A stretch of DNA of 64,000 bases, from contig CACLXU010000001.1 in NCBI GenBank assembly GCA_902610995.1, positions 144,422 through 208,421 of the forward strand. Direction: 5' to 3'. The translations under genes were made by a program, and so were the position numbers. Below, one piece after another: positions 3,067-18,800 of this stretch (position 1 is the first letter of the stretch; the number at the start of each line of letters is the position of its first letter). This DNA comes from an uncultured SAR86 cluster bacterium (lineage in GTDB: Bacteria > Pseudomonadota > Gammaproteobacteria > Magnimaribacterales > TMED112). The notes below the pieces were generated by a model. That model was not told where the DNA came from. It did no database searches and saw nothing but the letters and a program-made list of their open reading frames with translations.

Positions 3067-3254
3067 TTGTCGCTCTTATTTCTGTTAATAAATAGATATA
3101 TCAATTCTGGGATTCCAAACAATTGAACCACTAAGAATATTATAAACCAACCTTTCTCGTTTCTTCTAGCAGCAAGCCACATTGCAAAACCAGTGAAAAC
3201 AACATCTGCAATTATTGCTGGAAAAAAGAAATATGGTGACAACAAAATACTCAT
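3063..3254 (-). CDS. small two-helix membrane protein (pattern resembles the DUF5652 / PLD-N-terminal-like small membrane family)
   Basis: 63 aa with two hydrophobic helices and the pattern [32 protein letters not shown]. It has a 4-nt overlap with ppiA and sits 2 nt after the PhzF-like gene. The family name is from memory only. Confidence 0.35.
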
Positions 3255-3256
3255 GG

Positions 3257-4033
3257 TTATAAAAAATATTCGCCCCTAAGATAAAGACTCGCATTACCAG
3301 AAATCAAGACAGAATTTTCTTTAAGCTCACAAAATAATTCACCACCCCTTCTTGAGAGCTGCTTTGCCTTCAGTTTAGTTTTATTTAATCTTTCTGCCCA
3401 AAATGGTGTCAAAAGCGTATGTGCAGAACCAGTAACCGGATCCTCATCAACTCCGGTTTGAGGTCCAAACCATCTGGATACGAAATCAACATCTTTTCCA
3501 GATGAAGACACTATTAAGCCTCTCGAATCTAGGGTTTTAATTATTTCAAAGTTCAAATCTAGGTTCAAAACATCTTCTTCAGATTCTACAATCACCATGT
3601 AGTCATCAATTCCTTTATAGGCTTCTTTGATATTTGTATGGATAGCCGATTGAATTAATGACTTATCTTTTACCTCTCTAGGTAAATCTCGTGGGAGATC
3701 CATCACAATTTTGCCATTTGATTCTTTCGCGGTAAGTATTCCTCTTTTTGATTGAAACTTTACTTGCTTAGATTTGTGATCTATAAACTTAAAGAAAATA
3801 AAAGCCGAAGCTAATGTTGCATGTCCACATAAATCAACTTCGATTGTTGGTGTAAAAAAACGAATTATATTTGAATTTAAATTTATAAACGCAGTTTCCG
3901 ATAAGTTATTTTCAGCTGCAATTTTCTGCATTAAATTTTCTGACAACTCATGCTCATAGAATACTACTCCTGCAGGGTTGCCTGAGAAGACCTGATCAGT
4001 AAATGAATTTACAAAAAATATTTCCTTTTTCAT
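3257..4033 (-). CDS. PhzF family isomerase-like protein
   Basis: 258 aa. N-terminus FTDQVFSGNPAGVV, SETAF, CGHATLA, C-terminal DPVTGSAH; this is the PhzF/YddE family pattern. Confidence 0.8.
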   Translation of the reverse strand: MKKEIFFVNSFTDQVFSGNPAGVVFYEHELSENLMQKIAAENNLSETAFINLNSNIIRFFTPTIEVDLCGHATLASAFIFFKFIDHKSKQVKFQSKRGILTAKESNGKIVMDLPRDLPREVKDKSLIQSAIHTNIKEAYKGIDDYMVIVESEEDVLNLDLNFEIIKTLDSRGLIVSSSGKDVDFVSRWFGPQTGVDEDPVTGSAHTLLTPFWAERLNKTKLKAKQLSRRGGELFCELKENSVLISGNASLYLRGEYFL

Positions 4034-5271
4034 TCTGACTTAACAATCTTGCCCTCTTTCATAACAAATGGCACTTCCTCTAAAATATTTATCGAGTTAA
4101 GTGGATTCTGATCAAGACCAATAAAGTCTGCCTTGTTTCCGATCAATATTCTTCCAATCGATTCATCACCAATTAATTTTGCTGCGTTAATAGTGGCTGC
4201 TTGAACGGCTTCCAGAGGGGACATGCCCCATTCCACCATATATACAAATTGTTTACCATTATCGCCATGATCAAATATGCCAGCATCGGTTCCAAAAGTA
4301 ATATTTGCTCCAAGTTTTACTGCTTTTTTAAAATTTTGTCTTTGTGTCTTGCCAACAACTCGCTCTTTATTAAGAGATTCTTCTAGAACTCCTTTTTTTA
4401 CGCCTTCACCAAGTATGTAATCAGATACATATATGTCCATAGATAGGTAGGCATTATTTTCTATAGCTAAAAGAATAGTCTCTTCGTCGATGAAGCTTGC
4501 ATGTTCAATTGAGTCAACTCCAGCATTCAAAGCAGCTTTTATTCCTTCAAGACCATGTGCATGTGCAGCAACCTTCATGCCATTATTATGTGCTTCATCA
4601 ACTATTGCCTTCATTTCCTCAAAAGTAAATTGCTTTGCATTTACATCAGTATTTTTTGACATGACACCGCCGGTGGCACAAAACTTAATTAAATCTGCAC
4701 CAAATTTTCTGTTAGTTCTAACTTTTTTTCTTGCTTCCCATGGAGAGTCAACTATCCCTTGATTGGGAACAGAGCTTTCATGAGGAAGTAAATTATTGTC
4801 GCAGTGACCTCCTGTAATTCCTAAAGGTGGCCCAGAAACATACATCCTTGGTCCCAAGACTATCCCTCTATTGATTGCAGTTTTGAGTGCAACGTCTGCA
4901 TAATTTGCTGCCCCTACGTTTCTAACAGTTGTAAAACCTGCAAGCAAAGTTTTCTTAGCATTTAAGACTCCATAAAGTGTAGCCAAATACGACGATTCAC
5001 TTAAAGACTCATAGCCATTCAGCTGATTATTACCTATTAAATGTACATGAGTATCAATTAGACCAGGCAATAAAACCTTATCTTTTAATGAGATTATTTC
5101 AGCATTATTATTGGAAAGGTTATTTCCAATTTTTGTAATTACTCCATTTTTTATTTCTATATCAGCAGTAATTAACTCACCAGTCTCAACATCTAAATAT
5201 GATTTAGGTTTAAGAATAATTGTTTGAGAAAGGATATTTAAGGAAAGTATAAAAACTAATGTTAATCTCAT
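4030..5271 (-). CDS. exported amidohydrolase-superfamily hydrolase (COG1228 type, Xaa-Pro/Xaa-Arg dipeptidase-like)
   Basis: 413 aa. Signal peptide; HxH motif in GLIDTHVHL; KFCATGG (candidate carboxylated Lys); AAHAHG; IEHASF; GTDAG. Confidence 0.75.
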   Translation of the reverse strand: MRLTLVFILSLNILSQTIILKPKSYLDVETGELITADIEIKNGVITKIGNNLSNNNAEIISLKDKVLLPGLIDTHVHLIGNNQLNGYESLSESSYLATLYGVLNAKKTLLAGFTTVRNVGAANYADVALKTAINRGIVLGPRMYVSGPPLGITGGHCDNNLLPHESSVPNQGIVDSPWEARKKVRTNRKFGADLIKFCATGGVMSKNTDVNAKQFTFEEMKAIVDEAHNNGMKVAAHAHGLEGIKAALNAGVDSIEHASFIDEETILLAIENNAYLSMDIYVSDYILGEGVKKGVLEESLNKERVVGKTQRQNFKKAVKLGANITFGTDAGIFDHGDNGKQFVYMVEWGMSPLEAVQAATINAAKLIGDESIGRILIGNKADFIGLDQNPLNSINILEEVPFVMKEGKIVKSE

Positions 5272-5329
5272 ATTTATGGTTGGCTTACTAATACTATACC
5301 ATTCATCAATAAATATCTTGGGTATAAAA

Positions 5330-5405
5330 TGGTGGAGCTATGCGGGATCGAACCGCAGACCTCCTGCGTGCAAAGCAGGCGCTCTCCCAGCTGAGCTATA
5401 GCCCC
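5330..5405 (-). tRNA. tRNA-Ala (anticodon UGC)
   Basis: The reverse complement reads GGGGCTATAGCTCAGCTGGGAGAGCGCCTGCTTTGCACGCAGGAGGTCTGCGGTTCGATCCCGCATAGCTCCACCA. This is a canonical cloverleaf with a G3:U70 acceptor, anticodon loop CTTTGCACG and an encoded CCA. Confidence 0.95.
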
Positions 5406-5415
5406 AAGACCTCAA

Positions 5416-5444
5416 ATGATAAATATCTAAAGCAAAAAATACAA
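5416..5444 (-). promoter_or_regulatory. candidate sigma70 promoter for tRNA-Ala
   Basis: The minus strand reads TTGTAT (5444-5439), a 17-nt spacer, then TATCAT (5421-5416), 10 nt upstream of the mature tRNA 5' end. The AT-rich background makes chance matches likely. Confidence 0.3.
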
Positions 5445-5687
5445 CTATTCTTTATCTCTAGGATCATCTGAAAGCTTTTTTGCAACATATTTAGAAAATG
5501 GTGCAGTTATAAAAACTATTGGAGTTGCTATTGCCCAAGCTAGCATCCATGAACTTATCCAAGCTGCCATTTTTGGGGGGAAATCCCCTGTATTTAATGA
5601 TGTAATAAAAAAACTTACTAATCCTGACATTATTGTTGACAACAGTAACGTAGAAATTACTGTGGCAACTGTTAATTTAAACATCAC
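5445..5687 (-). CDS. DUF2798-like small membrane protein
   Basis: 80 aa with two helices. The pattern LLLSTIMSGLVSFFITSLNTG....WISSWMLAWAIATPIVFITAPFSKYVAKKL matches my memory of the DUF2798 repeat. Confidence 0.5.
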   Translation of the reverse strand: MMFKLTVATVISTLLLSTIMSGLVSFFITSLNTGDFPPKMAAWISSWMLAWAIATPIVFITAPFSKYVAKKLSDDPRDKE

Positions 5688-6112
5688 TTAAATAAGAAAT
5701 ATATTGAAATGGCAAAGAGTGAAAGTTGGTATTTAAATTCTGTCCAGGACTGCTCCAAAACATCAACATGAAAACCAAAAATTATTATCAACATAAGAAC
5801 AGTCGACAATAATCCTCCTAACGTTGAGAAACCTTTACTTGCTTCTCCAATGAAGTTAAATGAACCAATAATTATGAATATTGGTATAAGAATGGCTTCA
5901 CTTATTGCTACAACCCAAGAGGAAACAAGTGGAAAATCACTGAAAAAACTCATCTTTAAGATAAAGCCTAATGGTTGGTTTGGTTCTTCAATAAGTGAGA
6001 GGAGTTTGCCCTCCCCATGTGAAAACATTAACACAGCAAAAACTAATCTTAAGGTCATCTCAGAGAGTACACTCAGTCTGGAGTTTGAAATTCCATTTAG
6101 AAAATTAGACAT
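5684..6112 (-). CDS. DoxX-like integral membrane protein
   Basis: 142 aa with 4 hydrophobic spans and an N-terminal RLVFAVLMFSHGEGKL pattern like the DoxX family. It has a 4-nt overlap with the downstream gene. Confidence 0.4.
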   Translation of the reverse strand: MSNFLNGISNSRLSVLSEMTLRLVFAVLMFSHGEGKLLSLIEEPNQPLGFILKMSFFSDFPLVSSWVVAISEAILIPIFIIIGSFNFIGEASKGFSTLGGLLSTVLMLIIIFGFHVDVLEQSWTEFKYQLSLFAISIYFLFK

Positions 6113-6159
6113 AAATATATTTTAGTTCTGACCAGAGTTTTTACCAATAGAAAAGTTAG

Positions 6160-6570
6160 TTAGTCTGCGAAATGTTTTTCTTTTTCTTCGTTGATAGTTT
6201 TGACTTCTGCACAGTACTCAGCGGTAGGTCTAGATAATAGTCTTCTTAAACCAATGGGCTCTCCTGACTCTAAGCAATATCCATAGTCACCTGATTTGAT
6301 CCTCATTATAGCTTTATCTATCTTAGGGAGTAATTTGGATTCTCTTTCAACGATCCTCAAGAAAAGCATAGAATCAATTTCATGCTGTGCCCTATCAACC
6401 TCATCACTACAAGAAGGGGGGTTACTGAGTCTATCTTTGGCATCCCTAATATGCGTAAGGGTTTCTTTCTTGAGATCATCTAGTAGATCTCTAAAGAAAT
6501 GAAGTTGCTCCTTATTCATATAGTTTTTCTTCGGAGCTTTTAAAATTTTTTCTTTAGTTAGCATAAGCAA
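6160..6570 (-). CDS. dksA: RNA polymerase-binding transcription factor DksA, Cys-depleted (CxxS...CxxV) variant
   Basis: 136 aa, colinear with E. coli DksA: YMNKEQLHFFRDLL, coiled-coil tip DEVDRA (DxxDxA) and C-terminal GYCLESGEPIGLRRLLSRPTAEYCAEVKT. The track start at 6570 is TTG; an ATG lies at 6564. Confidence 0.85.
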   Translation of the reverse strand: MLMLTKEKILKAPKKNYMNKEQLHFFRDLLDDLKKETLTHIRDAKDRLSNPPSCSDEVDRAQHEIDSMLFLRIVERESKLLPKIDKAIMRIKSGDYGYCLESGEPIGLRRLLSRPTAEYCAEVKTINEEKEKHFAD

Positions 6571-6633
6571 AGAACATATTTTATGTATGAAAGAGAAAAT
6601 ATCAACAAAAACTTTTGCTAAATCACTTATTTT

Positions 6634-7920
6634 TTACATACTGTTTGCTTTATTGACACTCTTAGAAATGCCAAAACCAAGATACGTTAAATAAATTGCA
6701 AGAGGAATAATAGCTAGAGGAGCAGCATATGCAACCAGACCAAAAGAAAACATTAAATTAAAAAGCAGACCTCCAGAGGCATCGCCAAATCTATTTGTAA
6801 AAGTGTCAATAAAAACTGTGGATTTATATTTTTCCTTTGAATTCAGTGTTGTATAGACAGCCTCCCGAGCTGGTTTGTTTAACCCATACTCAAATGGTCG
6901 CATCACTGCTTGCAAAATTAAAAAAATAAGTACGGCTGAGGATCCTAATAAGATATCAGAGAAATAACCTGAAACTGCAAGAAAAGCCAAAGCAAAAATT
7001 AAACCATAAGCTGAAAGAACAAATTTTATCCCAAGAAAACTTGATCTAAGAATTGAAGCAGTAAGGAGTATTTGAATAAATAAAGTAACCAACGGCACAA
7101 TTGAGTCTGCCCTTCCGAATATTCTAGTTTTTTCGGCAGAATCATCCGTATAGTTATTTATAATTTCAAGCTGAAAGAACCAAAGTGCAGTTGAAAGACA
7201 TGTCCAAACGAATGCATAGATAACAAACTGCTGAATTAGAGGATTTGTACGTATTTGTGAAAACTGCTCGAGAGTATTTGATAGACTGTTATCAGCTGAC
7301 GTGCCAAAAAAGTTATCTTCTCTCTGAACACGTGATGAAAAAAAGATAGCCAGTAATAAAGATAATACTGCTATTAGGAGGGAAAGATTTTCTTTGTCAT
7401 AAAGAAATCCATCAACTAAGGCTCCCCCACATGAAGCACCTAATGAGCCAAATCCACTGATAATTCCAAAGAATTTTTTCCCATCCTCAATATCAAAAGA
7501 ATTAACGGTCATTGCCCAGAAAATAGCTACAACAAAAAAATTGAATATGTTATACCAGACATAGAAGAATGTTTTAATAGCTGAAATTTCTGGAAAATAG
7601 TTATAAACGAGGTAAAAACAACATAAACAAATGATAAAGAAGCCATAAATATAAGGTACTAGTTTGGTAAGACGAATTTTAGAAACTATTAGCGAATAAA
7701 TTGGATTAACCAGCAACATAACAATTACAATTATTAGTAAATAAAAGGGTAAATCACTAGTTCCAATATTTGCTGCTATTGTGTTTCTAAATGGTCTCAA
7801 AACAAACAATGAAAAAAGTACGAAAAAGAAAAATAAACCGGAGAAAACAGTATTCCTTGAGAAGAAAGAAAAGTTGTTAAAGTAGCTGTTAAAACCTTTA
7901 AGCATGATTCCTATAGGCAA
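6634..7920 (-). CDS. MFS-type carrier resembling the ATP:ADP antiporter / nucleotide transporter (NTT, TLC) family
   Basis: 428 aa with about 12 hydrophobic spans. It has colinear motif similarity to Rickettsia/Chlamydia Tlc proteins: LRPFRNTI (cf LRxxKD), FYVWYNIFNFFVVAIFWAMTVN...GKKFFGIISGFGSLG (cf FY..ELW....LFW.FAN....AKRFY..FG), and KYKSTVFIDTFTNRFGDASGG (cf K.K..ID...R.GKSGG). Its start overlaps the phoA stop by 10 nt. Confidence 0.5.
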   Translation of the reverse strand: MPIGIMLKGFNSYFNNFSFFSRNTVFSGLFFFFVLFSLFVLRPFRNTIAANIGTSDLPFYLLIIVIVMLLVNPIYSLIVSKIRLTKLVPYIYGFFIICLCCFYLVYNYFPEISAIKTFFYVWYNIFNFFVVAIFWAMTVNSFDIEDGKKFFGIISGFGSLGASCGGALVDGFLYDKENLSLLIAVLSLLLAIFFSSRVQREDNFFGTSADNSLSNTLEQFSQIRTNPLIQQFVIYAFVWTCLSTALWFFQLEIINNYTDDSAEKTRIFGRADSIVPLVTLFIQILLTASILRSSFLGIKFVLSAYGLIFALAFLAVSGYFSDILLGSSAVLIFLILQAVMRPFEYGLNKPAREAVYTTLNSKEKYKSTVFIDTFTNRFGDASGGLLFNLMFSFGLVAYAAPLAIIPLAIYLTYLGFGISKSVNKANSM

Positions 7921-9161
7921 GAGGCATTTTCTAAACTATCTATACCTAGTGCTTCTTTCATAGCAAAAAATATGTCTGTGTTATCCATAATGCCAGAAAA
8001 ATTTTCTGAGCCTGGCCCAAATGCAAAAACTGGAACCATGCCACCTGTATGAGATCCTATTCCAATGCCAGTATTCCAGGAAACATTCATTTTGCCTGTT
8101 GGACGATATCTAACATCCGTAGGTTCAATTAATAGGCCTCCAGTTTCATGGTCTGCTGTAACAATTAAAAGGGTGTCTGAGTTTTGTTTGGCAACTTCAA
8201 GGGCATCGTCGACAACCTCTTCAAATTCAGCCATTTCGATTAAAAAACTCTGAAAATCGTTATCGTGTGATCTCCAGTCAATCATTGAACCTTCAATAAG
8301 TGCAAAGTAACCTCTGCAACCGTTTGCAATATGCTCTAATGATTTTTTATGCACAAATTTAAACATGTCTAGGAGAGAAGGTTCTGATTCTTTTCTTACG
8401 AGCTCATCCTCAGCAAACAAACCAAAAATTCGTGATGATAGAGGAAATTCTAAATTTAAAGCTTCTTTGGTTTCAATTAAATTGTATTGATTTTTAATTT
8501 TTGAAATAAGATCTTCTTCATCTTCTCTAAATCCACCCTTCGATTTTGGATAAAAATAACCTTTCCCTCCACCAAGGATTAAATTAATCTTTGAATCAAA
8601 GATTGCTGTTGCGATTTTGTCTTTTTCATATCTTGAATCCACATGCGCTGCAAAAGCTGCAGGTGTTGCGTGAGTTATTTCTGAGGTTGCTACAAGAGAT
8701 GAGAAATATCCCTTTTCATTTAACATCTCTAATATATTTTTTACTGGTATTTTTTCAGGATTTACCCCCACATATCTATTTATAGTCTTAACCCCAGAAC
8801 TAAATGCAGTAGCTGAGGCAGCTGAGTCAGTTATAAGTGTATTTAAAGCATGCGTTTTAACTAAACCTGAAATAGGGAACTTATCAAATGCAGTAATATG
8901 GTTTGGGCCACCCTTCATAACTCTATAGGACGTAATGTGATTTGAACCCATTCCATCGCCAATTAAAAAGATAATATTTTTTGCCTTATTGGTTACAGGC
9001 TGAATATTCCGATTGGTTACTTTACTTTCAAAATCTATTTTGATGAGTTCTTTATCTTTTTTAGGAACCTCAAATAAAAATGGTGCATATAAATTAATTA
9101 GATATGCAGTTGCAGCCATAGTTATAAAAGCAGTAAGAAAATATTTAAGAAAACTTTTCAT
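7911..9161 (-). CDS. phoA: alkaline phosphatase, PhoA family (Zn/Mg-dependent), exported
   Basis: 416 aa. N-terminal signal/anchor, then DGMGSNH, TDSAASATAF (nucleophile Ser), IDWRSHDND, TADHETGG and GSHTGG. This is the complete PhoA-type metal-ligand set. Confidence 0.85.
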   Translation of the reverse strand: MKSFLKYFLTAFITMAATAYLINLYAPFLFEVPKKDKELIKIDFESKVTNRNIQPVTNKAKNIIFLIGDGMGSNHITSYRVMKGGPNHITAFDKFPISGLVKTHALNTLITDSAASATAFSSGVKTINRYVGVNPEKIPVKNILEMLNEKGYFSSLVATSEITHATPAAFAAHVDSRYEKDKIATAIFDSKINLILGGGKGYFYPKSKGGFREDEEDLISKIKNQYNLIETKEALNLEFPLSSRIFGLFAEDELVRKESEPSLLDMFKFVHKKSLEHIANGCRGYFALIEGSMIDWRSHDNDFQSFLIEMAEFEEVVDDALEVAKQNSDTLLIVTADHETGGLLIEPTDVRYRPTGKMNVSWNTGIGIGSHTGGMVPVFAFGPGSENFSGIMDNTDIFFAMKEALGIDSLENASCL

Positions 9162-9976
9162 TTCTGATCAAGAGATTTAGATTTCTTTTCAAGCTTTTTA
9201 TCTCTAGATATGGAGTAATCAAAGTCAATGATTGATCCCTCCCAATCTCCATACATAGGATTTGAAAACATATACCAAGAGACGCCCCAATAATCATCAT
9301 ATTTTTTAGTAACGCTAATTCTTTCAGCAGGTGAAAGATTATTTTCTTTAATATCAACAAAATCACCTAGGTTATCGCCAAACATCATTACAATTCTGTA
9401 ATCTCTAGCTAATAACTCTCTTCTTGAAGATTTATTGGAACCCCAATTATTTTCACCTCTAGATAAAATAAAGTCCTTTTTTTTCGGCAGATTTAGGCCA
9501 AGCTTCTGGTAATTTTTAATAGTTGCTTCTTCAATTTCCTTGACTCTATTTGTAACAAAGAAAATTTCTACGCCTTCTGAAAGAGCAAACTGAAGAAATT
9601 CAAGCGCACCTGGTAAAAATTCTGCTTGCTCCTCTTTGGCCCAGCTTACCCAACCATCTGGATAAGAAGTATTGTTTTTTATCAATCTTGCCTGGTAAGC
9701 GCTGTTATCCAGGACGGTTTGGTCAACATCAAGAATTATCGCGGGTGGCTTATTGTGATAATTATCTGTTTGTTCAAGTGCGGCAGTGTGATATTTGTTT
9801 TGAAGCAGTTCTTTTAAATTATTTTCTGCTGCTTTATAGATAGATTTAGAATTTGCATAAAACTCTGCAGATGACTGTACAAATAATGTTGCCATGAGAA
9901 GTTCATGATCTTTCTCATTACTATTCAGAGGTGTGCTGATTAAAATAAAAATGATTATTATTTTAAAAAATTTCAT
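9158..9976 (-). CDS. class C acid phosphatase / 5'-nucleotidase, e(P4) family (HAD superfamily), exported
   Basis: 272 aa. Signal peptide; ILDVDQTVLDNS (DxDxT) and GDNLGDF motifs of the DDDD phosphatase family. No lipobox Cys. ATGA overlap with phoA. Confidence 0.8.
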   Translation of the reverse strand: MKFFKIIIIFILISTPLNSNEKDHELLMATLFVQSSAEFYANSKSIYKAAENNLKELLQNKYHTAALEQTDNYHNKPPAIILDVDQTVLDNSAYQARLIKNNTSYPDGWVSWAKEEQAEFLPGALEFLQFALSEGVEIFFVTNRVKEIEEATIKNYQKLGLNLPKKKDFILSRGENNWGSNKSSRRELLARDYRIVMMFGDNLGDFVDIKENNLSPAERISVTKKYDDYWGVSWYMFSNPMYGDWEGSIIDFDYSISRDKKLEKKSKSLDQK

Positions 9977-9990
9977 AAGTCATTATATCC

Positions 9991-12570
9991 TTAATCTTTT
10001 GGGCTAAGCTCAAATTGAATATTGATTAATCTCCCCCTTGGATCATGTACTCTAGTATCAAAGCTAAAATCAGGTGCGTCATAGAGTTTTGGGGGCTGCT
10101 CATCAAAAAGGTTTATCAGAGAAAATGAGGTTGTTAAATCCAAACCCTCAAAAAGATTTTTAAATTTCTGTCTGTATGTAAAATCAAATACCAAAAAACT
10201 ACTAACCTTATTCTTATAACCCTTGCTAAGTGCACTATCCGGAATATTCCGCTCATTTGTATAGCCATCAATATATCTTGCAATTAAGCCTAATTCGTGA
10301 GGGGCATAATTCCATTGAATAAAAGAATTTATTCTTTTTTTTGGGATTGAGTGAGTATTGGCATCAAAGTTAAATCTGCCTACTCTATTTATCATGGCGC
10401 TGGTTCCGGCTCCAGGAGTTAAGAATTCAATAAAATTGGTACCTTTTATGATTAATTTTAAGTTTCCTAAATCATCAAGATCAAAATTCTCGTTAAAAGA
10501 AAAATCAAATCCAGAAACTTTTGTGGATGTCTCATTAAAGTAAGTTGTTGTCACACCTATTAATTCTCCAGATTCGTTTCTTGTTATGCTTGATCCATAG
10601 GGATCATTTATTAAAAGGGCTTGAGAGCTTTCTGATTCAACTCTATTTTTATAGTCAATGGACCAGTAATCTATAATTAATTCTCGTTTAAAAGAATTAA
10701 GCTCTATTCCAAAGTTTAAATTGTCCGCCAGTGAAGGTTTCAGCTCAGGGTTTCCAATTTGTGCTTGGCGTACAAATATATTGTCATCAAAATCTCTGAC
10801 ACTTCCTAGATTAATTTCACTGGAAAACATTTGAGCCATAGATGGCATTGAAAAAGATGATCCATAGGACCCTCTAAGGGAAATTAAATCATTTAATTTA
10901 GACTTAAATGACATTTTAGGATCAAATGAGGAATAGTTATCTGATTCTTCATATCTTCCTGAAATCATTAAATCAATGAAATCAGTAGGGCTTGATCTTC
11001 CTTCAAAAAATAGTGCAAACTTAGTTCTATCAGTAGCAACATTCTTACCACCACCTAGGAAAAAGAGATCGGCAATTTTTGTAATTTTCCCATCTGCATC
11101 AAACTCAGCTCTAGCAATATCGTTATATGTAATATCTAAATTTTCAAAACTAATTTGGGAACCAAATGCTAGGTAGTAGTTATTGATGCTTGTCCTGCCA
11201 ATAATATCTAGCACTGATAAAGTCCCGATTTTTTCCGAAATTTCTGCACCCCTCACATAATCAATTAAAGATTGTGAGTTTTTATTAGGCTCAAATATGT
11301 TCCATTGTTCATTTCCAGAGGCACCTCCATTCCCACTCATAGCATCTTGAAACCTCGAATCAATTATATCGGGTCTATTGTGTTTATTTTTATGTTCGCT
11401 AGTTGTAAGTGAAAATTCAAAATCAAAATCTTCTACTACTTTATAAAATGAATAATTTAGATGGTATTGAGAAATATCTTTTGGGGAAAATGGTGAGGGA
11501 AATTGAGACCCTAAAGGTCGACCTCTCCACTTTACCGGAACATTAAAAGGGGATGATCCCTCCCCTGGCTGAATAAGTCGAGTTAAATATGGTAGCGCTG
11601 GATAAGAAGGTGATTGGGGATTATCAATTACCCTTATATTTGAAGTCATCAAAGTAAAGTTATGAGAATTATTTCTAAGATTCAGGAAAAATTTTGAGTG
11701 ATCTTCAGTATTGACGATATTAAATCTCGTCCCGTAAAGAAATCTACAAAATCCTTGCAAAACACCACCATTCTCTACGCAGTTTGGATCGGGGACAATC
11801 TGATTTGCAGTGTATACACCCTCATATAAACCTTCTTCAATTTCGTCTGGTGCAGTAGTTATAAAAGTATTACCAAGACCACTTAAGGCTAATTCTGCTA
11901 TATTTGGAATTTCAGAAGCTGATAAAGGTGATCTATCAAGAATATTTGCAGCAAATACAAGGTCCCAGTTATTAATTTCAGAACCATACAGAAGACCAAA
12001 GTTTTGGTCCTTTTGACTGTAATTGGTTGTAGATTGATCGCCAAAACGAATTTTTATTCCTTTAAAGTCGTTATGAGTCAAAAAATTAATAACACCTGCG
12101 ACAGCATCTGATCCATAAGACGAGGTAGCTCCTTCTTTTAAAATTTCTATTTTTTTGAATGCAATTTCAGGGATGATATTTATATCAATGTATCCTTCAC
12201 CCTCATTGGAGGGTGTTCCTGCAAAGGTGTGTCTTTTTGAATTTATTAATAACAATGTTGAAGCATGATCCAATCCTCTTAACGTAATTGATGCCATCCC
12301 TTGATCAACTCCTCCCAATGTGTTTGATTGAAAGCGTGAACCAGAAGATATATTTAAGTATTTACTGATTTCAGCTAAGTTTGTAATGTTAAGTGAATTG
12401 AAGTCTGTGTCTGTAATGATTTCAGTTGGACTAATGTTTTCAGTAGCTTCACCCAGAAGAGAGCCAGTAATTACAACTTCTTCTATGTCATTTTCATCAC
12501 TAGAAATTAGCCCAAGAAAAAGAATTATTTTCAAAAACAGCAGGTTGTGACTTTTTATTTTCATCATCAT
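9991..12570 (-). CDS. TonB-dependent outer-membrane receptor
   Basis: 859 aa. Signal peptide; TonB-box-like IEEVVITGS; plug motifs (ASITLRGL, IEILKEGATSSYGSDAVAGVINF); long barrel region of alternating aromatic/polar strands. The stop lies 14 nt before the acid phosphatase start. Confidence 0.85.
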   Translation of the reverse strand: MMMKIKSHNLLFLKIILFLGLISSDENDIEEVVITGSLLGEATENISPTEIITDTDFNSLNITNLAEISKYLNISSGSRFQSNTLGGVDQGMASITLRGLDHASTLLLINSKRHTFAGTPSNEGEGYIDINIIPEIAFKKIEILKEGATSSYGSDAVAGVINFLTHNDFKGIKIRFGDQSTTNYSQKDQNFGLLYGSEINNWDLVFAANILDRSPLSASEIPNIAELALSGLGNTFITTAPDEIEEGLYEGVYTANQIVPDPNCVENGGVLQGFCRFLYGTRFNIVNTEDHSKFFLNLRNNSHNFTLMTSNIRVIDNPQSPSYPALPYLTRLIQPGEGSSPFNVPVKWRGRPLGSQFPSPFSPKDISQYHLNYSFYKVVEDFDFEFSLTTSEHKNKHNRPDIIDSRFQDAMSGNGGASGNEQWNIFEPNKNSQSLIDYVRGAEISEKIGTLSVLDIIGRTSINNYYLAFGSQISFENLDITYNDIARAEFDADGKITKIADLFFLGGGKNVATDRTKFALFFEGRSSPTDFIDLMISGRYEESDNYSSFDPKMSFKSKLNDLISLRGSYGSSFSMPSMAQMFSSEINLGSVRDFDDNIFVRQAQIGNPELKPSLADNLNFGIELNSFKRELIIDYWSIDYKNRVESESSQALLINDPYGSSITRNESGELIGVTTTYFNETSTKVSGFDFSFNENFDLDDLGNLKLIIKGTNFIEFLTPGAGTSAMINRVGRFNFDANTHSIPKKRINSFIQWNYAPHELGLIARYIDGYTNERNIPDSALSKGYKNKVSSFLVFDFTYRQKFKNLFEGLDLTTSFSLINLFDEQPPKLYDAPDFSFDTRVHDPRGRLINIQFELSPKD

Positions 12571-12628
12571 TTAGATACATATTAAATAGTACCATCTAAT
12601 ATAAATAAAAGGCTGTTATGTAGGATAT

Positions 12629-12650
12629 GGGAGAGGCTAAAGCCTCTCCC
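12629..12650 (-). terminator. GC-rich hairpin directly after the His-rich receptor gene (candidate terminator or RNA-stability element)
   Basis: GGGAGAGGCT-AA-AGCCTCTCCC is a perfect 10-nt inverted repeat (realistically 9 bp plus a 4-nt loop). It begins 8 nt after the stop at 12658 and is the only GC-rich element in the 87-bp spacer. No clean U-tract follows on the minus strand. Confidence 0.4.
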
Positions 12651-12657
12651 AAAATAA

Positions 12658-14955
12658 TTAGAAGTCTAATCTAAATTTCACACCAAAATTCAGTCCAGGA
12701 AGAGGTACCTGGTCTTTTACATAAGATGCGTGGTTTCTTGCAACTTCATCAAGAATATTATTTGCGAATAATGAAACTCTAAGGTTATTACCTGAGGCGA
12801 GGTTATAATCCTTACCAACTCTAAGGTTTAACATTTTATAGCCATCAGTTATTGTTTCACCATCACCAATTTCCTTTTGTGCTTCTACGTCCTTAAGAGT
12901 GAGGTTAAGTCTTAAATCGCTAGCTACATAAGATAAACTATATAGATTTCTGGCAGGTGTGATTCTTGGAATATTTTCACCATCGGAAAATTCTCCATTA
13001 ACTACATCTCTTCCAAAGGAGAGCTCAAGCTCGCCTGATGCAAGGATAAATCTTCTACCAAATTCAAATTCATAACCATTAAAATCAGCGTCTTGCTGAA
13101 GAAAATCTGCATGAATTAGACCTCCATGATCATCATGTCCCTCGTGCTCATCATGATCTTCATCGCCATGATCCTCATCGTGATGGTCCTCGTCCATGTG
13201 TTCAAGCTCATCTTGCAGATAGATATAATTTGAAATGCTATTTTGAAATGCAGTAAACTGTCCAAAAAAGTTTCCATCATCATAGAACAATGTCCCTTCA
13301 AAATTATTGCCTCTTTCTGGATCTAGGTTTACATCACCAGTTTCAAATCTACCTCGTGCTAAGTGTGGTCCATTCATTGCTAAATTTGTGCTAGAAGGTG
13401 CATTTGCAACGCTTGAAAAACTTACATCAAAGCTCATTGAATCATTGATCTGTTTTCTGAGACTTGCAGAGAAACTATATTCTTCATAAGTATTATCAAA
13501 AAATACTTCTTCCATTTCATGATGTTCATCCTCGTGCTCATCACCATGCTCGTCACCATGATCATCATCGTGATGCTCTTCTTCATGATGTTCTGTTATG
13601 GAACCTTTTCGATTTACTGAGTCATACCTTACCCCAAGATCCAAATCAAAATCTCCAGGCAAATCAGTGCCAAGATAATATCCGATGTTGAACTCTTCAC
13701 TTTGAACTGGGTTCATGAAAGCTTCAGCACCAACTATTGCCTCATCCATCTCTAAGAAATTAACCATCACCTTTGCAGAATGAGAATTTCTGAATGGCGC
13801 AAAGTCAAAGATTGCACCAAATTCTGTTGCATCATTTGTAAATACTGTAGGTCCTTCCTCATGTCCATGATCATCATGATCTTCACCTTCATGCTCATCA
13901 CCGTGTTCGTCTCCATGTTCTTCAGCATGCTGTTCTGAAAATGCATACTCAGTGTCCCTAAAGAAGTAGTCAACACTGTTTACCAAGCTACCATTAACAT
14001 TAAAACTACCTTGAAGATTAACAGCCTGTGAATCTGTGAAGGCATAAATTCTCTCACCTTCATGCTCATCACCATGCTCATCACCATGATCTTCATCGCC
14101 ATGCTCATCACCATGCTCATCACCATGCTCTTCACCATGATCATCGCCATGGAATGGAATTCCATATACTGTTTCTTGGTCCTCTAGAGATATACCAAAA
14201 TATCCCCAGTCACCTACTCTAGAAACCCCAAATCTTGAAGTTGTTGATCCAAAATCAGAATTTGCAAGAAAGCCCATGTCTTCTTCATGCTCGTCATGAT
14301 CTTCATCTTCGTGCTCTTCCTCAGAATGGATAATGGCACCATTTGGAATATCATAGTTTCCAAATTGAGAATCCTTAAATGAAAAGGTGAGATTTAACCC
14401 ACCGACATTATTTTCATAGAAAAAGTTCTTGGAATCACCCTCATTAACAGTTTGAAATTCAACACCCAGACCGCCAGCTTGCTCCTCAAAATTTTTCTGA
14501 GAAATAGTGTTATCAATGATATTGACAACACCTCCAAGTGCGCCTTTTGCATAAAGCAATGATGAAGGTCCTCGAATTATTTCTATTTGTCTTATATTAA
14601 AAAGGTCAACTTCATTAAGATGGTCAGCACCCATGCCAGCAACATCGGCAACACTAAGACCATTTCTCAGAATTTTTACCCTTCCATCCAGCAACCCACG
14701 TATAGCAGGCTGACCAACTGCAGCTCCATAATCTACTGAAGATACTCCTAAAAGATCATCAATCGATTCACCTAAACTCTGTGTGCCCGTATCGCCAAGT
14801 TCTTCACCATTTACGATATGGATTGGATCCCCTATTTCAGAAAGTTGTCTGTCTTCGTCAGTTAGTGACGAGGTTACGACAACTTCTTCGACCTCTTGTG
14901 TTTCGACTATGAATGTGAGCGAAACAAATAAACTTATAATTAATATTTTTTTCAT
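12658..14955 (-). CDS. TonB-dependent receptor with five His/Asp/Glu-rich inserts (candidate divalent-metal, ZnuD-like, receptor)
   Basis: 765 aa. Signal peptide; TonB-box-like EEVVVTSS; plug IEIIRGPSSLLYAKGALGGVVNII; canonical C-terminus GVKFRLDF. It carries five H/D/E/G low-complexity blocks (listed as repeat features). Confidence 0.85.
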   Translation of the reverse strand: MKKILIISLFVSLTFIVETQEVEEVVVTSSLTDEDRQLSEIGDPIHIVNGEELGDTGTQSLGESIDDLLGVSSVDYGAAVGQPAIRGLLDGRVKILRNGLSVADVAGMGADHLNEVDLFNIRQIEIIRGPSSLLYAKGALGGVVNIIDNTISQKNFEEQAGGLGVEFQTVNEGDSKNFFYENNVGGLNLTFSFKDSQFGNYDIPNGAIIHSEEEHEDEDHDEHEEDMGFLANSDFGSTTSRFGVSRVGDWGYFGISLEDQETVYGIPFHGDDHGEEHGDEHGDEHGDEDHGDEHGDEHEGERIYAFTDSQAVNLQGSFNVNGSLVNSVDYFFRDTEYAFSEQHAEEHGDEHGDEHEGEDHDDHGHEEGPTVFTNDATEFGAIFDFAPFRNSHSAKVMVNFLEMDEAIVGAEAFMNPVQSEEFNIGYYLGTDLPGDFDLDLGVRYDSVNRKGSITEHHEEEHHDDDHGDEHGDEHEDEHHEMEEVFFDNTYEEYSFSASLRKQINDSMSFDVSFSSVANAPSSTNLAMNGPHLARGRFETGDVNLDPERGNNFEGTLFYDDGNFFGQFTAFQNSISNYIYLQDELEHMDEDHHDEDHGDEDHDEHEGHDDHGGLIHADFLQQDADFNGYEFEFGRRFILASGELELSFGRDVVNGEFSDGENIPRITPARNLYSLSYVASDLRLNLTLKDVEAQKEIGDGETITDGYKMLNLRVGKDYNLASGNNLRVSLFANNILDEVARNHASYVKDQVPLPGLNFGVKFRLDF
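13123..13209 (-). repeat. His/acidic coding block 5 (aa 583-611 ELEHMDEDHHDEDHGDEDHDEHEGHDDHG)
   Basis: Coordinates derived from the translation of the receptor ORF. Confidence 0.9.
13510..13593 (-). repeat. His/acidic coding block 4 (aa 455-482 EHHEEEHHDDDHGDEHGDEHEDEHHEME)
   Basis: Read from the translation. The DNA contains ctcatcaccatg and ctcgtcaccatg in tandem. Confidence 0.9.
13852..13935 (-). repeat. His/acidic coding block 3 (aa 341-368 EQHAEEHGDEHGDEHEGEDHDDHGHEEG)
   Basis: Read from the translation. The DNA contains near-copies of the same 12-nt unit (ctcatcaccgtg, ttcgtctccatg). Confidence 0.9.
14053..14151 (-). repeat. His/acidic coding block 2 (aa 269-301), tandem 12-nt HGDE repeats
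   Basis: The plus strand shows ctcatcaccatg (reverse complement CATGGTGATGAG = HGDE) four times exactly, as two tandem pairs, plus degenerate copies (ctcttcaccatg, atcatcgccatg). The protein reads HGDDHGEEHGDEHGDEHGDEDHGDEHGDEHEGE. Confidence 0.9.
14278..14328 (-). repeat. His/acidic coding block 1 (aa 210-226 HSEEEHEDEDHDEHEED)
   Basis: Coordinates derived from the translation of the receptor ORF. Confidence 0.9.
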
Positions 14956-14990
14956 TTTTACCTCCTTTGAAAAAATTAAATCTTAAAAAC

Positions 14991-15257
14991 CTAATCTTTC
15001 TGAGGAGGCGCTCTGGAGTGTGCACTTCTATGAGTTTTTTTAAAGTTGGATTGTATTGATGATTTTGATTTTAAATCAATGGGTAATTCGTTTTTTTCAA
15101 ATTTACTTGTTAATGAATTTAATTCAGATTCTTCACATGCAAGGCATTCAATTACAGTTTGTTCCTCAATCTCATGGTGATCATGAAGCAGAGGTTCAGC
15201 AATTAAGCCAAATGAAAGAAAAATTGTAAAAACTAAATTCTTACTGCTGTCCAACAT
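14991..15257 (-). CDS. small exported His/Cys protein, unknown function, first gene of the receptor locus
   Basis: 88 aa. N-terminal hydrophobic segment (LVFTIFLSFGLIA), then HDHHEIEE and a CxxC (ECLACEE), with a basic C-terminal tail. It lies 35 nt upstream of the His-rich receptor on the same strand. I recognise no family. Confidence 0.4.
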   Translation of the reverse strand: MLDSSKNLVFTIFLSFGLIAEPLLHDHHEIEEQTVIECLACEESELNSLTSKFEKNELPIDLKSKSSIQSNFKKTHRSAHSRAPPQKD

Positions 15258-15287
15258 AGGCTAACTATACCAGAAAAATCCTTTATT

Positions 15288-15317
15288 TATCAATGATAGA
15301 TATTTTTCTCAATATCT
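15288..15317 (-). promoter_or_regulatory. two adjacent AT-rich inverted repeats in the 119-bp region upstream of the small His/Cys ORF (candidate operator)
   Basis: TATCAATGATA (15288-15298, an 11-bp palindrome with Fur/Zur-like ATCATTGATAA content on the minus strand) overlaps AGATATT-tttctc-AATATCT (15298-15317). This could be chance in AT-rich DNA. Confidence 0.2.
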
Positions 15318-15376
15318 TTTCTGCTTAAGTAAACTTTTCAAGTTCAATATATATTCTTTCAAAAATAATTTTTTTA

Positions 15377-17125
15377 TTAAGGTTGTCTTATAGTGGCCAA
15401 AATCAATCCTACTTTCTTGGGGGGATTTGGGAAAAATTTTATGCAAAGAGCAGCGGTTAAAAAGTTGACTATCATTCCAATTACACCAAAGCCTTCAGGG
15501 GATATACCCAAGAACCAATAATCTGAATTATTAAAATTTGGAAAAATAAATTTGAAGTAAATTATATATGAAAGTGTTGTAATCAAACCTAGAATCATCC
15601 CAAGAATTGCTCCTTCTTTATTGATATTTTTAAAAAATATTCCCATTAGTAGTGCAGGAAAAATAGTTGACGCCGCCAAACCAAAAGCCAGAGCAACAAC
15701 CTGAGCCACAAAACCAGGAGGATTAATACCAAAATAACCCGCAATTAGAATTGCTATACTTGCAGCAATACGAGCGTAAAGTAATTCTTGTTTTTCAGTA
15801 ATTTTTGGTCTGAACGTTTTTTTCATTAAATCATGAGAGATCGAAGAGGAAATTACTAATAGCAAGCCAGCTGCTGTTGAAAGTGCAGCTGCAAGTGCCC
15901 CAGCAGCAACTAATGCAAATACCCATGGTGGTAAATTTGCAATTTCAGGATTAGCTAGCACCATAATATCTCTGTCAATATATAGCTCATTTTGACTATC
16001 TTCATTCAGCTTATTAGAAATGATTCTTTCGCCATAAATGCCTACCTCAGAAGTAAATGAGGGTTGTATGCCTTCGAATGCATTCCCGGGGTAGAGCTGC
16101 ATTGCCCCATCATCATTTTTATCTTTCCAGGCTACAAGACCTATACTCTCCCAATTTTTAAACCATTCTGGGGCATCAATATACTTTGTATCTTGTATAG
16201 AGTCTGCAATGTTTGCTCTTGCAAATGCTCCTACTGCAGGGGCTGTTGTGAATAGTAACGCAATAAATATAAGAGCATAGCCCACAGATTTTCTGGCATC
16301 CTTAACTTTGGGAACTGTAAAGAATCTTACGATAACATGAGGTAATCCTGCTGTTCCAAACATTAAAGCTGCTGTTATACAAATGATATCAAATGTACTT
16401 TTAGTGTTTTCTGTGTATGGGTTAAAGCCAAGTTCCTCTGTAATTCGATCTAGTTTATCTAAGAGAAATTCTGAACTTCCATTTACGGTATCACCAAAGC
16501 CCAATTGAGGCACTGGATTTCCAGTTACTAAAATTGAGATAAATATCGCAGGAACTAAATAGGCAAAGATTAAAACGCAGTATTGAGCAACTTGTGTATA
16601 TGTGATGCCTTTCATGCCTCCCATAACAGCGTAAAAGAAAACAATCACCATGCCGATAATTACTCCTAGATTGATATCTACTTCAAGGAATCTTGAAAAA
16701 ACAATTCCCACACCTCTCATTTGTCCAGCGATGTAGGTAAATGAAATGAAAATTAAACACAGCACGGCAACGATTCGTGCAAGGTCAGAATAATATCGAG
16801 TTCCGATAAATTCGGGTACAGTGTATTTTCCAAACTTTCTCAAATATGGCGCTAGAAGGAGCGCAAGCAAAACATATCCACCTGTCCACCCCATGAGATA
16901 AACTGCGCCATCCCTTCCAGAAAAAGCAATAATGCCTGCGATAGAAATAAAAGATGCAGCTGACATCCAATCAGCTGCTGTAGCCATCCCGTTTGCAACC
17001 GGGTGGACTCCTTTTCCAGCCACATAAAAATCCCCGGTATCTTTCGCTTTACTCCAAAATGCAATTCCAATATAGAGTGCAAAAGTAAGTCCAACAAATA
17101 AGTAAGTTAATAATTGAACACTCAT
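15377..17125 (-). CDS. sodium:solute symporter family permease (ActP/VC_2705-like large subunit)
   Basis: 582 aa with about 13-14 hydrophobic spans and SSS-family architecture. It is translationally coupled (4-nt overlap) to a DUF4212 small subunit, the known two-gene arrangement for this subfamily. Confidence 0.85.
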   Translation of the reverse strand: MSVQLLTYLFVGLTFALYIGIAFWSKAKDTGDFYVAGKGVHPVANGMATAADWMSAASFISIAGIIAFSGRDGAVYLMGWTGGYVLLALLLAPYLRKFGKYTVPEFIGTRYYSDLARIVAVLCLIFISFTYIAGQMRGVGIVFSRFLEVDINLGVIIGMVIVFFYAVMGGMKGITYTQVAQYCVLIFAYLVPAIFISILVTGNPVPQLGFGDTVNGSSEFLLDKLDRITEELGFNPYTENTKSTFDIICITAALMFGTAGLPHVIVRFFTVPKVKDARKSVGYALIFIALLFTTAPAVGAFARANIADSIQDTKYIDAPEWFKNWESIGLVAWKDKNDDGAMQLYPGNAFEGIQPSFTSEVGIYGERIISNKLNEDSQNELYIDRDIMVLANPEIANLPPWVFALVAAGALAAALSTAAGLLLVISSSISHDLMKKTFRPKITEKQELLYARIAASIAILIAGYFGINPPGFVAQVVALAFGLAASTIFPALLMGIFFKNINKEGAILGMILGLITTLSYIIYFKFIFPNFNNSDYWFLGISPEGFGVIGMIVNFLTAALCIKFFPNPPKKVGLILATIRQP

Positions 17126-17370
17126 TTATCTTTATTCTTATCCTGATATTTTTTATCTAACTTATTCATCAGATATACATAAATAAAAATTAATATTACA
17201 AAGAAAAAAATACTGCCTTGTTGAGCAAACCAAAAGCCAAGCTTGAAACCACCAATTTTGAACTGATCAAGCCACTCAGAAAAAATTATTCCAAACCCAA
17301 AGGAAACCAAGAACCAGATCGAGAGAAGTACAAATATTATTCTAAGATTCTCTTTCCAGTAGTCATTCAT
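17122..17370 (-). CDS. DUF4212 small subunit of the sodium:solute symporter
   Basis: 82 aa with two helices. YWKENLRIIFVLLSIWFLVSFGFGI...GFKLGFWFAQQGSIFFFVILIFIYVYLMNKLDKKY matches the DUF4212 pattern. Confidence 0.75.
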   Translation of the reverse strand: MNDYWKENLRIIFVLLSIWFLVSFGFGIIFSEWLDQFKIGGFKLGFWFAQQGSIFFFVILIFIYVYLMNKLDKKYQDKNKDK

Positions 17371-17446
17371 AAGATCACATTATATAGCAGTTAAACATTA
17401 AGAAAAATTTACTAGTGCTTTATTGTTTATGGTTAAAATAGGATGG

Positions 17447-18286: not shown

Positions 18287-18362
18287 TCAAGCATTATACA
18301 AAAATTAAATTAAATCGGGAAAGTTAGATTTTTCTCATAATAATCAAATTTGGCGCTGCTTA

Positions 18363-18530: not shown

Positions 18531-18613
18531 TATCAATTAGGTTTCAATCCCAGACCATCTGTCACTAAAGCTATAGAAAAATCTAAAAACTCATAATTAC
18601 AACTAGAATAAAT

Positions 18614-18638: not shown

Positions 18639-18667
18639 ATTCAAAGTTATTTTGCATCAAAAAGAAC

Positions 18668-18744
<77 letters not shown>

Positions 18745-18753
18745 GAGGGAGAC

Positions 18754-18759: not shown

Positions 18760-18800
18760 TGACTATCAATTAAGTCTGGAAAGGGGCAAATAATTATTAA

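Follow-up and report, generated by a model that had tools for sequence, protein, structure and literature searches.

SAR86 bacteria are among the most abundant bacteria of the surface ocean, and several of the proteins considered here have described counterparts in other organisms. Alkaline phosphatases of the PhoA family require zinc, and e(P4) of Haemophilus influenzae is a class C acid phosphatase that acts as a nicotinamide mononucleotide (NMN) 5'-nucleotidase. The outer-membrane receptor ZnuD binds zinc at a buried site formed by Asp99, His100, Glu340 and His499, and the sequence HSHEYDDCHAD of its loop 3 forms a peripheral cluster (PMC4557270). Work on Caulobacter reports that Zur-regulated TonB receptors can carry zinc across the outer membrane (PMC4176598), DksA2 of Pseudomonas is described as a spare copy that is switched on by zinc starvation (PMC9213440), and for marine Synechococcus WH8102 an interplay of zinc and phosphorus is reported, in which the zinc supply matters for PhoA-type phosphatases (PMC3865332). 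In the main comparative paper on SAR86 the TonB receptors are treated as iron and vitamin B12 transporters, and zinc, DksA and alkaline phosphatase are unmentioned (PMC11582366). We describe here a locus of seven genes in a 64-kb stretch of DNA from an uncultured SAR86 bacterium (GCA_902610995.1, contig CACLXU010000001.1), which is referred to below as the window. An initial annotation of the window had interpreted the seven genes, at positions 6160-15257 and all on the minus strand, as a zinc-phosphorus co-limitation island. The open reading frames and our family searches agree with the coordinates, the orientation and the identities it had assigned:

14991..15257, minus strand: small His/Cys protein of 88 aa, predicted to be secreted, partner of the His-rich receptor
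12658..14955, minus strand: ZnuD-family TonB-dependent receptor of 765 aa with five predicted His/Asp/Glu-rich extracellular loops
9991..12570, minus strand: second TonB-dependent receptor (receptor 2) of 859 aa, with Plug and barrel, first gene of the phosphatase operon
9158..9976, minus strand: e(P4)-like class C (HAD-IIIB) acid phosphatase / 5'-nucleotidase (eP4), predicted to be secreted
7911..9161, minus strand: PhoA-family alkaline phosphatase of 416 aa (PF00245, 262.5 bits) with an N-terminal membrane anchor or signal
6634..7905, minus strand: carrier of the major facilitator superfamily (MFS) with NTT fold, 423 aa, last gene of the operon (428 aa in the open reading frame as called, 6634-7920)
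6160..6564, minus strand: DksA2-type, two-cysteine RNA-polymerase-binding factor (DksA_N, PF21157, and zf-dskA_traR, PF01258)

A comparison that took in about 170 related loci, those of the relatives being pieces of 21 kb, leads us to regard it as reasonably probable that these genes make up three adjacent, separable units in a nutrient-acquisition hotspot, and not a dedicated, co-regulated zinc-phosphorus device. The units vary independently, since the receptor pair (the small His/Cys protein and the His-rich receptor) occurs without phosphatases, eP4 and PhoA occur together without the receptor, and six SAR86 species carry the receptor and lack PhoA.

Homologues of the His-rich receptor with 47-50% identity are found in the Porticoccaceae and in other Gammaproteobacteria. 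The small gene and a five-cluster receptor stand together in seven out of seven such loci (L166-168, L171 and L172 from the Porticoccaceae, L169 from another gammaproteobacterium, and L170), and PhoA, eP4, the carrier and DksA are absent within 6-8 kb of the pair in all seven. The comparison of gene order called for by the initial annotation thus gave two answers: the adjacency recurs in SAR86, and in the Porticoccaceae and other Gammaproteobacteria the receptor pair occurs without the phosphatases. Its neighbours in the Porticoccaceae are a photolyase-related gene and a gamma-glutamyl transpeptidase gene; at L170 (5029-8331) the pair begins 21 nt after a gene for an SCO1/SenC copper chaperone, at the end of a cytochrome-oxidase assembly cluster. 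The small protein itself has a hydrophobic N-terminus, an HDHH stretch and the motif CLAC, matches neither a Pfam nor an NCBIfam model, and retrieved only eight close relatives in a homology search. Its family evolves fast and keeps the hydrophobic N-terminus, one invariant His, the motif E-C-x-x-C and a C-terminal R-A/D-P-P; these features are common to SAR86, the Porticoccaceae and two other lineages, and the gene is always found directly upstream of the receptor. ZepA, a cyanobacterial zinc exoprotein, was considered as a relative and rejected, as it is a two-domain PEP-CTERM protein. The receptor pair looks like a widespread marine metal-uptake module that has gone undescribed: in literature searches on SAR86 with zinc or alkaline phosphatase, and on marine ZnuD, we found no prior description of it.

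The two phosphatases likewise occur without the receptor. A metagenome scan with an alignment of PhoA gave 80 loci, five of which have the gene arrangement seen in SAR86, one of these being identical to the window. Another 22 have an overlapping eP4-PhoA pair and no match to either receptor, the carrier or DksA, and in the four of these with enough flanking sequence (L110, L091, L120 and L136) no receptor adjoins the pair. On the marine contigs L110 (9189-15269), L091, L095 and L097 the pair is flanked by aconitase-family (LeuCD-like) genes on one side and by an HMG-CoA-lyase-like gene on the other, and a porin gene, a gene for the Pit (PHO4) phosphate transporter and one for a PhoU-like DUF47 protein stand next to it. 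The eP4 proteins of the receptor-free pairs reach 70% identity to the SAR86 protein. The eP4-PhoA pair is, in other words, a recurring phosphorus module for which the receptor is not a required neighbour.

Within SAR86 the census used one genome per species and two peptide patterns derived from an alignment of the carrier family. It yielded 79 loci, with titles that are SAR86-type or those of unclassified (Gamma)proteobacteria metagenome-assembled genomes, one being titled OM182. The carrier adjoins DksA in 28 of the 79, and in the other 51 it stands alone in unrelated contexts; in other SAR86 families its homologues follow Tol-Pal or lie beside Rieske/GST genes, a context that is uninformative for function. 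In the 28 loci eP4, the carrier, DksA and the genes that follow are constant and the rest is variable. All loci of types A to D carry eP4. Of 27 SAR86 loci that can be compared, 17 lack PhoA, and the L025 group lacks the gene for receptor 2. PhoA is therefore a variable insert in an operon whose invariant core consists of the translationally coupled eP4 and carrier genes. Scored for the His-rich receptor and for PhoA, seven loci have both, six have the receptor and no PhoA, ten have neither, and none has PhoA without the receptor. We rejected this two-by-two table as significant evidence of co-occurrence: the ten loci with neither gene fall into a single clade on a tree built from concatenated proteins (carrier, DksA and eP4), so that the table reduces to about one loss event. 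PhoA is patchily distributed on the same tree and is absent even from L013, the closest relative of the window there.

The locus lies between two tRNA genes:

18668..18744, minus strand: tRNA-Ile(GAT), upstream edge of the variable region (ARAGORN and Rfam)
5330..5405, minus strand: tRNA-Ala(TGC), downstream edge of the variable region (ARAGORN and Rfam)

All ten relatives checked have the tRNA-Ala(TGC) gene at the corresponding place, and tRNA-Ile(GAT) lies upstream of the locus in L005, L007, L010, L013 and L046, the five in which the sequence reaches far enough. Both have the same orientation around the locus and are 10-14 kb apart. These two tRNAs are usually found together in the spacer between the 16S and 23S rRNA genes; no rRNA genes occur in the window. 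The cargo between them varies, and the stretch they bound is thus a mosaic, variable region carrying exchangeable cargo, a flexible region in the usual sense. Relatives that lack PhoA often have a purple-acid-phosphatase-like gene in this region (L010:342-5403, L013:183-1739, L005:1901-3460), often followed by a vitamin-salvage module of a TonB-dependent receptor, PnuC and a kinase and by a gene with a CIA30 domain. The window has PhoA and no purple acid phosphatase. The sequence identities also vary along the locus: relative to L007 they are 89% for the carrier, 50% for eP4 and 47% for the His-rich receptor, and relative to L046 they are 67% for the His-rich receptor and 52% for the carrier. 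Such mosaic values suggest that SAR86 lineages have recombined with one another.

At least three transcription units are present, namely the small protein with the His-rich receptor, receptor 2 with eP4, PhoA and the carrier, and DksA. The sites that delimit them are:

12629..12650, minus strand: terminator-like hairpin GGGAGAGGC-TTTA-GCCTCTCCC, which closes unit 1
15264..15293, minus strand: promoter-like site TTGATA-18-TATAGT with an extended -10 TG, upstream of the small gene
6578..6605, minus strand: promoter of DksA, TTGATA-16-TAAAAT (promoter scan, 10 of 12 matches)

The hairpin, with -21 kcal/mol and z = -4.4, is equalled by none of 200 shuffled sequences. Perfect-stem hairpins of other sequence occupy the same place in L001 (GAGAGGGC/GCCCTCTC) and L005 (CTAGGGC/GCCCTAG), and the retention of the structure while the sequence differs argues for a real terminator. 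Within unit 2 the gene spacings of 14, -4 and 5 nt are typical of a single operon: 14 nt separate receptor 2 from eP4, the end of eP4 and the start of PhoA have 4 bp in common, and the most likely start of the carrier is the ATG at 7905, 5 nt past the PhoA stop. DksA follows a 69-nt spacer that contains its own promoter. The GC hairpin reported in the initial annotation and its count of at least two transcription units are thus borne out, the count being raised to three. Its placement of the metal receptor directly upstream of the PhoA operon is right as to position, but the conserved terminator separates the receptor from the operon. Shared orientation is weak evidence for one unit, because the unbroken minus-strand run extends from 2485 to 21317 and comprises 18 protein genes and two tRNAs, more than the seven genes. 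The site upstream of the small gene tops the promoter scan (10 of 12 matches), and its element TGGTATAGT is common to the window and L013. An extended -10-like sequence, TGGTACTAT, lies upstream of receptor 2 and also occurs in L013.

No regulatory site that would tie the units together was detected in SAR86. A canonical Zur or PhoB box, which the initial annotation had suggested looking for in the spacers 12571-12657 and 15258-15376, occurs neither there nor anywhere else in the window. With up to 3 mismatches allowed, the Pho box (two CTGTCAT repeats 11 bp apart) is matched twice in the window, each time far away from the locus, and less often than chance would predict; in the upstream regions the best Pho matches have 5-6 mismatches, in a consensus search from which a SAR86 PhoB site may differ. 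No Zur-box-like site within 2-3 mismatches is present in the window. At up to 3 mismatches the Pho and Zur searches of the window yielded fewer matches than expected by chance and none near the locus. Searches of 14 upstream regions with the Zur, Fur and Pho consensus sequences and for palindromes revealed nothing conserved in SAR86. Just upstream of the small-gene promoter the window has a 7-6-7 inverted repeat, AGATATT...AATATCT, which is not kept in relatives; neither this repeat nor the TGATTATAATCA palindrome of L013 is common to these two close relatives. Genes for Zur, PhoB/R, Pst, ZnuABC or a second DksA are likewise absent from the 64-kb window.

The third unit is the most constant of the three. 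The DksA start is most likely the ATG at 6564, giving 134 aa as in all relatives (the open reading frame as called ran to 6570). Two of the four zinc-finger cysteines are left, as the initial annotation had noted: the finger reads CLES...CAEV, compared with CQET...CIEA in P. aeruginosa DksA2 (4IJJ) and CESC...CIDC in E. coli DksA, and the tip motif DEVDRA (DxxDxA) is intact. Its best match in the Protein Data Bank (PDB) is 4IJJ (3.1e-29, with 2.8e-21 for E. coli DksA). The pattern C-x-x-S/T...C-x-x-V/I occurs in 36 of 36 DksA copies in the relatives' loci (82-94% identity), whatever their receptor or PhoA content, and a search of the window and of the 21-kb loci turned up no second DksA. Upstream of the gene, TTGAyA-N17-CATAAAAT is kept in all of about 30 relatives, and the spacer between these two elements drifts and has no conserved palindrome. 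The conserved plain promoter suggests constant expression, and the protein looks like the standing zinc-free DksA of the lineage, not a zinc-switched paralogue. The claim that it belongs to a local zinc economy was not upheld; a two-cysteine DksA fits a zinc-sparing trait of the lineage, not membership in a local island. A RelA/SpoT-family (p)ppGpp enzyme and a membrane H+-pyrophosphatase are encoded at 50125-52272 and 58957-60969, 44-53 kb from the locus. Enzymes of the RelA/SpoT family are the functional partner of DksA.

The way in which the three units would work can be outlined as follows. Unit 1 would be a module for the capture and import of a divalent metal; its five outer loops, flexible and rich in His, Asp and Glu, would trap scarce metal ions with high avidity, much as a net does. 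From the loops a captured ion would reach a buried Asp-His...His site resembling the one in ZnuD, and TonB energy would carry it on into the periplasm, where the small protein may receive it. Unit 2 would scavenge organic phosphate, probably nucleotides: receptor 2 would take the substrate across the outer membrane, the two phosphatases would hydrolyse it in the periplasm, and the carrier would move the product or the intact nucleotide across the inner membrane. Unit 3 would supply DksA from its own promoter as the regular zinc-free DksA of the lineage. Unit 1 may aid PhoA indirectly, by way of the periplasmic zinc pool.

The features of unit 2 are in line with this outline. PhoA appears to be a normal zinc enzyme, as the nucleophile and every zinc and magnesium ligand are kept, in agreement with the metal requirement that had been assumed for it. 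Its metal and catalytic positions are invariant in four divergent homologues (56-60% identity); they correspond to D51, S102, T155, E322, D327, H331, D369, H370 and H412 of the E. coli enzyme. eP4 matches PF03767 (130.6 bits) and, as its best NCBIfam model, TIGR01533 (199.6 bits, under the cut-off of 216). It contains the motifs DVDQT and GDNLGD, and its N-terminus is without cysteine, hence without a lipobox Cys. The HAD family, to which it belongs, does not use zinc. The PDB matches of receptor 2 are weak and generic (siderophore receptors, CirA, BtuB). The carrier has no Pfam match at E <= 0.01; MFS_1 appears at E = 0.07 and TLC (PF03219) is absent even at E <= 1. Its AlphaFold model (pTM 0.81) has 12 helices, and the best PDB folds are AtNTT1 (E 9e-10, TM 0.78) and Chlamydia NTT1, with LacY at 8e-7. 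The earlier description of an NTT-like carrier therefore stands at the level of the fold and not at that of the profile. Relatives of the carrier have the JGI label 'AAA family ATP:ADP antiporter'.

The strongest competitor of the separable-units reading is the one that the initial annotation had put forward: that the receptor was recruited beside the PhoA operon to secure the cofactor of the enzyme, that the zinc-free DksA belongs to the same economy, and that the whole is co-selected or co-regulated. We consider it unlikely, and the points in its favour, which weigh against our own reading, are the following. Adjacency of the units is kept in several deep SAR86 lineages, as that annotation would lead one to expect. 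None of at least seven PhoA-bearing cases in SAR86 (seven species representatives, the window and several metagenome contigs) is without the His-rich receptor in the locus. L025, L026 and L028 have an uninterrupted series of receptor, MerC-like gene, eP4 and PhoA, so that in this group the receptor lies directly upstream of eP4-PhoA save for the MerC-like gene, which is the expected look of a real linkage between zinc and PhoA. PhoA keeps its zinc and magnesium ligands, the receptor is ZnuD-like, and DksA resembles DksA2. Regulation was judged by consensus searches alone, and as SAR86 operators may differ from the consensus, the units may after all be co-regulated. Our view of DksA as a standing copy, suggested by the 21-kb loci of the relatives, and the substrates of receptor 2 and the carrier, which are guesses, are further weak points of the reading we prefer. 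Against the island stand the conserved terminator and separate promoters that split the units, the failure to find a Zur or Pho box, the receptor without PhoA in six SAR86 species and in all non-SAR86 carriers examined, the eP4-PhoA pair without the receptor elsewhere, a co-occurrence that amounts to about one loss event on the tree, and a DksA2 that is invariant whatever the receptor and PhoA content. What is left of the proposed coupling is a physiologically plausible link between zinc and phosphorus, based on few independent events and on a PhoA that keeps all its metal ligands and never occurs without the receptor in the locus; the terminator between the units, the lack of a shared box and the separability of the modules speak against anything tighter.

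The separable-units reading leaves the metal of unit 1 to be considered. The His-rich receptor has the Plug (PF07715) and barrel (PF00593) domains, 42 His residues (5.5%), 21.7% Asp plus Glu, no Cys and few Met. The ZnuD-like character that had been proposed for it is confirmed by sequence, profile and fold: ZnuD is the best PDB match in a phmmer search (3.6e-30, next best 8e-9), in a search with a profile of seven family members (5.3e-51, next best 7.6e-16) and in a Foldseek search with the AlphaFold model (3.8e-29, next best 4.7e-22). This model has 22 barrel strands and a moderate mean pLDDT of 59.9, with the barrel better than the rest. With a numbering offset of 14 residues in the PDB chain allowed for, Asp99/His100 of ZnuD align with D111/H112 and His499 with H531, all invariant in 32 family members; the region of Glu340 does not align, so that three of the four zinc ligands are invariant. 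The His clusters at 212-226, 269-300, 343-367, 455-483 and 584-611 each fall, in the model, between an odd and the next even barrel strand, that is, on the predicted extracellular side, and the cluster at 269-300, between strands 5 and 6, aligns with HSHEYDDCHAD of ZnuD loop 3. The threshold of the curated NCBIfam model for ZnuD (NF038289) is missed by far (163.5 versus 950 bits), for which reason we class the protein as a predicted member of the ZnuD family, ZnuD-like in mechanism, and not as a ZnuD orthologue.

From this we infer that zinc is the most likely metal. That unit 1 instead imports another metal (Cu, Co, Ni, Cd) or a metal complex, unrelated to PhoA, seems to us quite unlikely. 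Clusters of His, Asp and Glu bind many divalent metals, those of the receptor presumably included; the SCO1 context at L170 and the CxxC motif of the small protein mean that copper may be the metal, which also counts against our reading. The low score with the NCBIfam ZnuD model points in the same direction, and haem receptors share the locking mechanism of ZnuD (PMC4557270). On the other side, ZnuD is clearly the closest solved relative, with three of four zinc ligands invariant, and the context of the pair varies by lineage, so that the SCO1 adjacency may be as incidental as that of PhoA. The receptor, without Cys and with few Met, differs in this content from the copper receptor OprC. In addition, L169 (GCA_028404285.1) has at 7661-7675 a perfect 7-1-7 palindrome, TGTTACAGTGTAACA, within the promoter of the small gene, between TTGACT (the -35 element) and the -10 element. 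It is the sole match to its pattern among 169 loci and resembles the core of the gammaproteobacterial Zur box, TGTTATAWTATAACA; it gives modest support to zinc control of the receptor pair in this one lineage. The upstream regions of the SAR86 copies contain no Zur-box-like palindrome of this kind.

It is very unlikely that the operon serves mainly for the salvage of nucleotides or of phosphorylated vitamins (NMN), as Haemophilus e(P4) does with PnuC, and that PhoA is an optional booster: the best family match is indeed the e(P4) 5'-nucleotidase model, the carrier has a nucleotide-translocator fold, eP4 and the carrier are the coupled core, and a module with PnuC occupies the same tRNA-bounded region in PhoA-less relatives, but the 64-kb window has no PnuC, eP4-PhoA elsewhere has the phosphate context of Pit, PhoU-like and porin genes, the replacement of PhoA by a purple acid phosphatase in relatives fits phosphorus scavenging, and homologues of the carrier occur in unrelated contexts.

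Several further features of the locus and its surroundings deserve mention. In the window, 12-nt tandem repeats at 14061-14151 (also at 13535-13567 and 13152-13191), in up to 7.3 copies, encode the His-Gly-Asp-Glu clusters of the receptor. Between near-identical contigs the receptor varies in length (747 aa in L001 and 757 aa in L002), which suggests repeat slippage. The MerC-like gene encodes a membrane protein of the MerC family (PF03203) and is found between the TonB receptor and eP4 in two SAR86 clades (L025:7425-7841, L010:8726-9109), where it adds a second metal-transport element to the locus. Several SAR86 lineages share a conserved open reading frame for a very basic protein of 48 aa (MNKSERLLKSERARERRHATKK...) directly upstream of the first receptor, as in L001 (2069-2215), L022, L024, L025, L015-L017 and L020. 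The window lacks it, no family model matches it convincingly, and the idea that it is a zinc-free ribosomal paralogue was dropped for want of a supporting match. In L001 (9589-9951, minus strand) a gene for a membrane protein of 120 aa, His-rich in its C-terminal tail, is inserted between PhoA and the carrier in the opposite orientation; it also occurs in L014, L021, L022, L024 and L087, all of one SAR86 clade, and has no confident family match. The G+C content across the window is 32-39%, and the relatives of its genes are found in SAR86 (Magnimaribacterales) genomes and marine metagenomes. The remainder of the window is ordinary chromosome, with genes for SpoT, RecG, PriA, guanylate kinase, H+-pyrophosphatase, TyrRS and others.

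If the receptor pair captures zinc, it offers a specific gene by which the acquisition of zinc in marine heterotrophs can be traced, and makes co-limitation by zinc and phosphorus testable in metatranscriptomes. Because the three units are separable, how strongly one is expressed, or how abundant it is, should not be read as a measure of the other two. The mosaic region between tRNA-Ile and tRNA-Ala, for its part, is a landmark for the swapping of nutrient-acquisition modules in SAR86. A bolder version, tentative and in our opinion unlikely to hold as a whole, is that the pair is an undescribed high-avidity capture system for trace metal (zinc), common among abundant marine Gammaproteobacteria of oligotrophic waters, SAR86 and the Porticoccaceae being examples, and in SAR86 brought and kept beside a zinc-dependent PhoA operon, and that together with the zinc-free DksA it reflects a genome-wide regime of zinc sparing and capture that sets the use of organic phosphorus. 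If true, this would give a genomic handle on zinc-phosphorus co-limitation in heterotrophic bacterioplankton.

Compared with the described systems, the locus shows both agreement and difference. In the accounts of Synechococcus WH8102 (PMC3865332) and Caulobacter (PMC4176598) the links come from expression data and regulons, whereas here there is gene adjacency alone and no regulatory site was found. With ZnuD of Neisseria meningitidis (PDB 4RDR/4RDT/4RVW; PMC4557270) the receptor shares the TonB-dependent architecture, the Asp-His pair of the plug, the His of the barrel and the loop-3 cluster. It differs in having five long clusters on five loops instead of one loop, in an identity of about 19-20%, in the absence of a Zur box in SAR86, and in a host that lives free in the ocean, with no setting of host 'piracy'. 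A small His/Cys partner gene such as the one that always accompanies the SAR86-type receptor is not known for ZnuD. DksA resembles DksA2 of P. aeruginosa (4IJJ) in the CxxT/S...CxxA/V pattern in place of the Cys4 finger, in a nearly identical ETGEPIGLRRLL stretch and in the intact DxxDxA motif; the Pseudomonas protein is a Zur-regulated paralogue, whereas the gene described here has an ordinary conserved promoter and no conserved operator and is of the same type in every DksA-bearing locus.

The enzymes of unit 2 can be compared in the same way. PhoA is similar to the E. coli enzyme and to marine PF00245 enzymes in its strong Pfam match, the DSAAS nucleophile motif and the Zn1, Zn2 and Mg ligands, and differs from E. 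coli PhoA in a Trp in place of Lys328, a conserved N-terminal membrane anchor and a gene that overlaps the eP4 stop. A Trp at this position is also found in some cold-active marine alkaline phosphatases. With the H. influenzae lipoprotein e(P4), the SAR86 protein has in common the HAD-IIIB fold family, TIGR01533 as the best model and the catalytic Asp motifs; unlike it, the protein has no lipobox Cys, which would make it soluble or periplasmic, and its coupling partner is an NTT-fold carrier in place of PnuC. Finally, the NTT1 proteins of Arabidopsis plastids and of Chlamydia (PDB 9J3M, 9J3N) are the best structural matches to this carrier (TM 0.72-0.78). The carrier, with 13-17% identity to them, is about 60-70 residues shorter and has no TLC match, and it belongs to a free-living bacterium, not to an organelle or an intracellular parasite.

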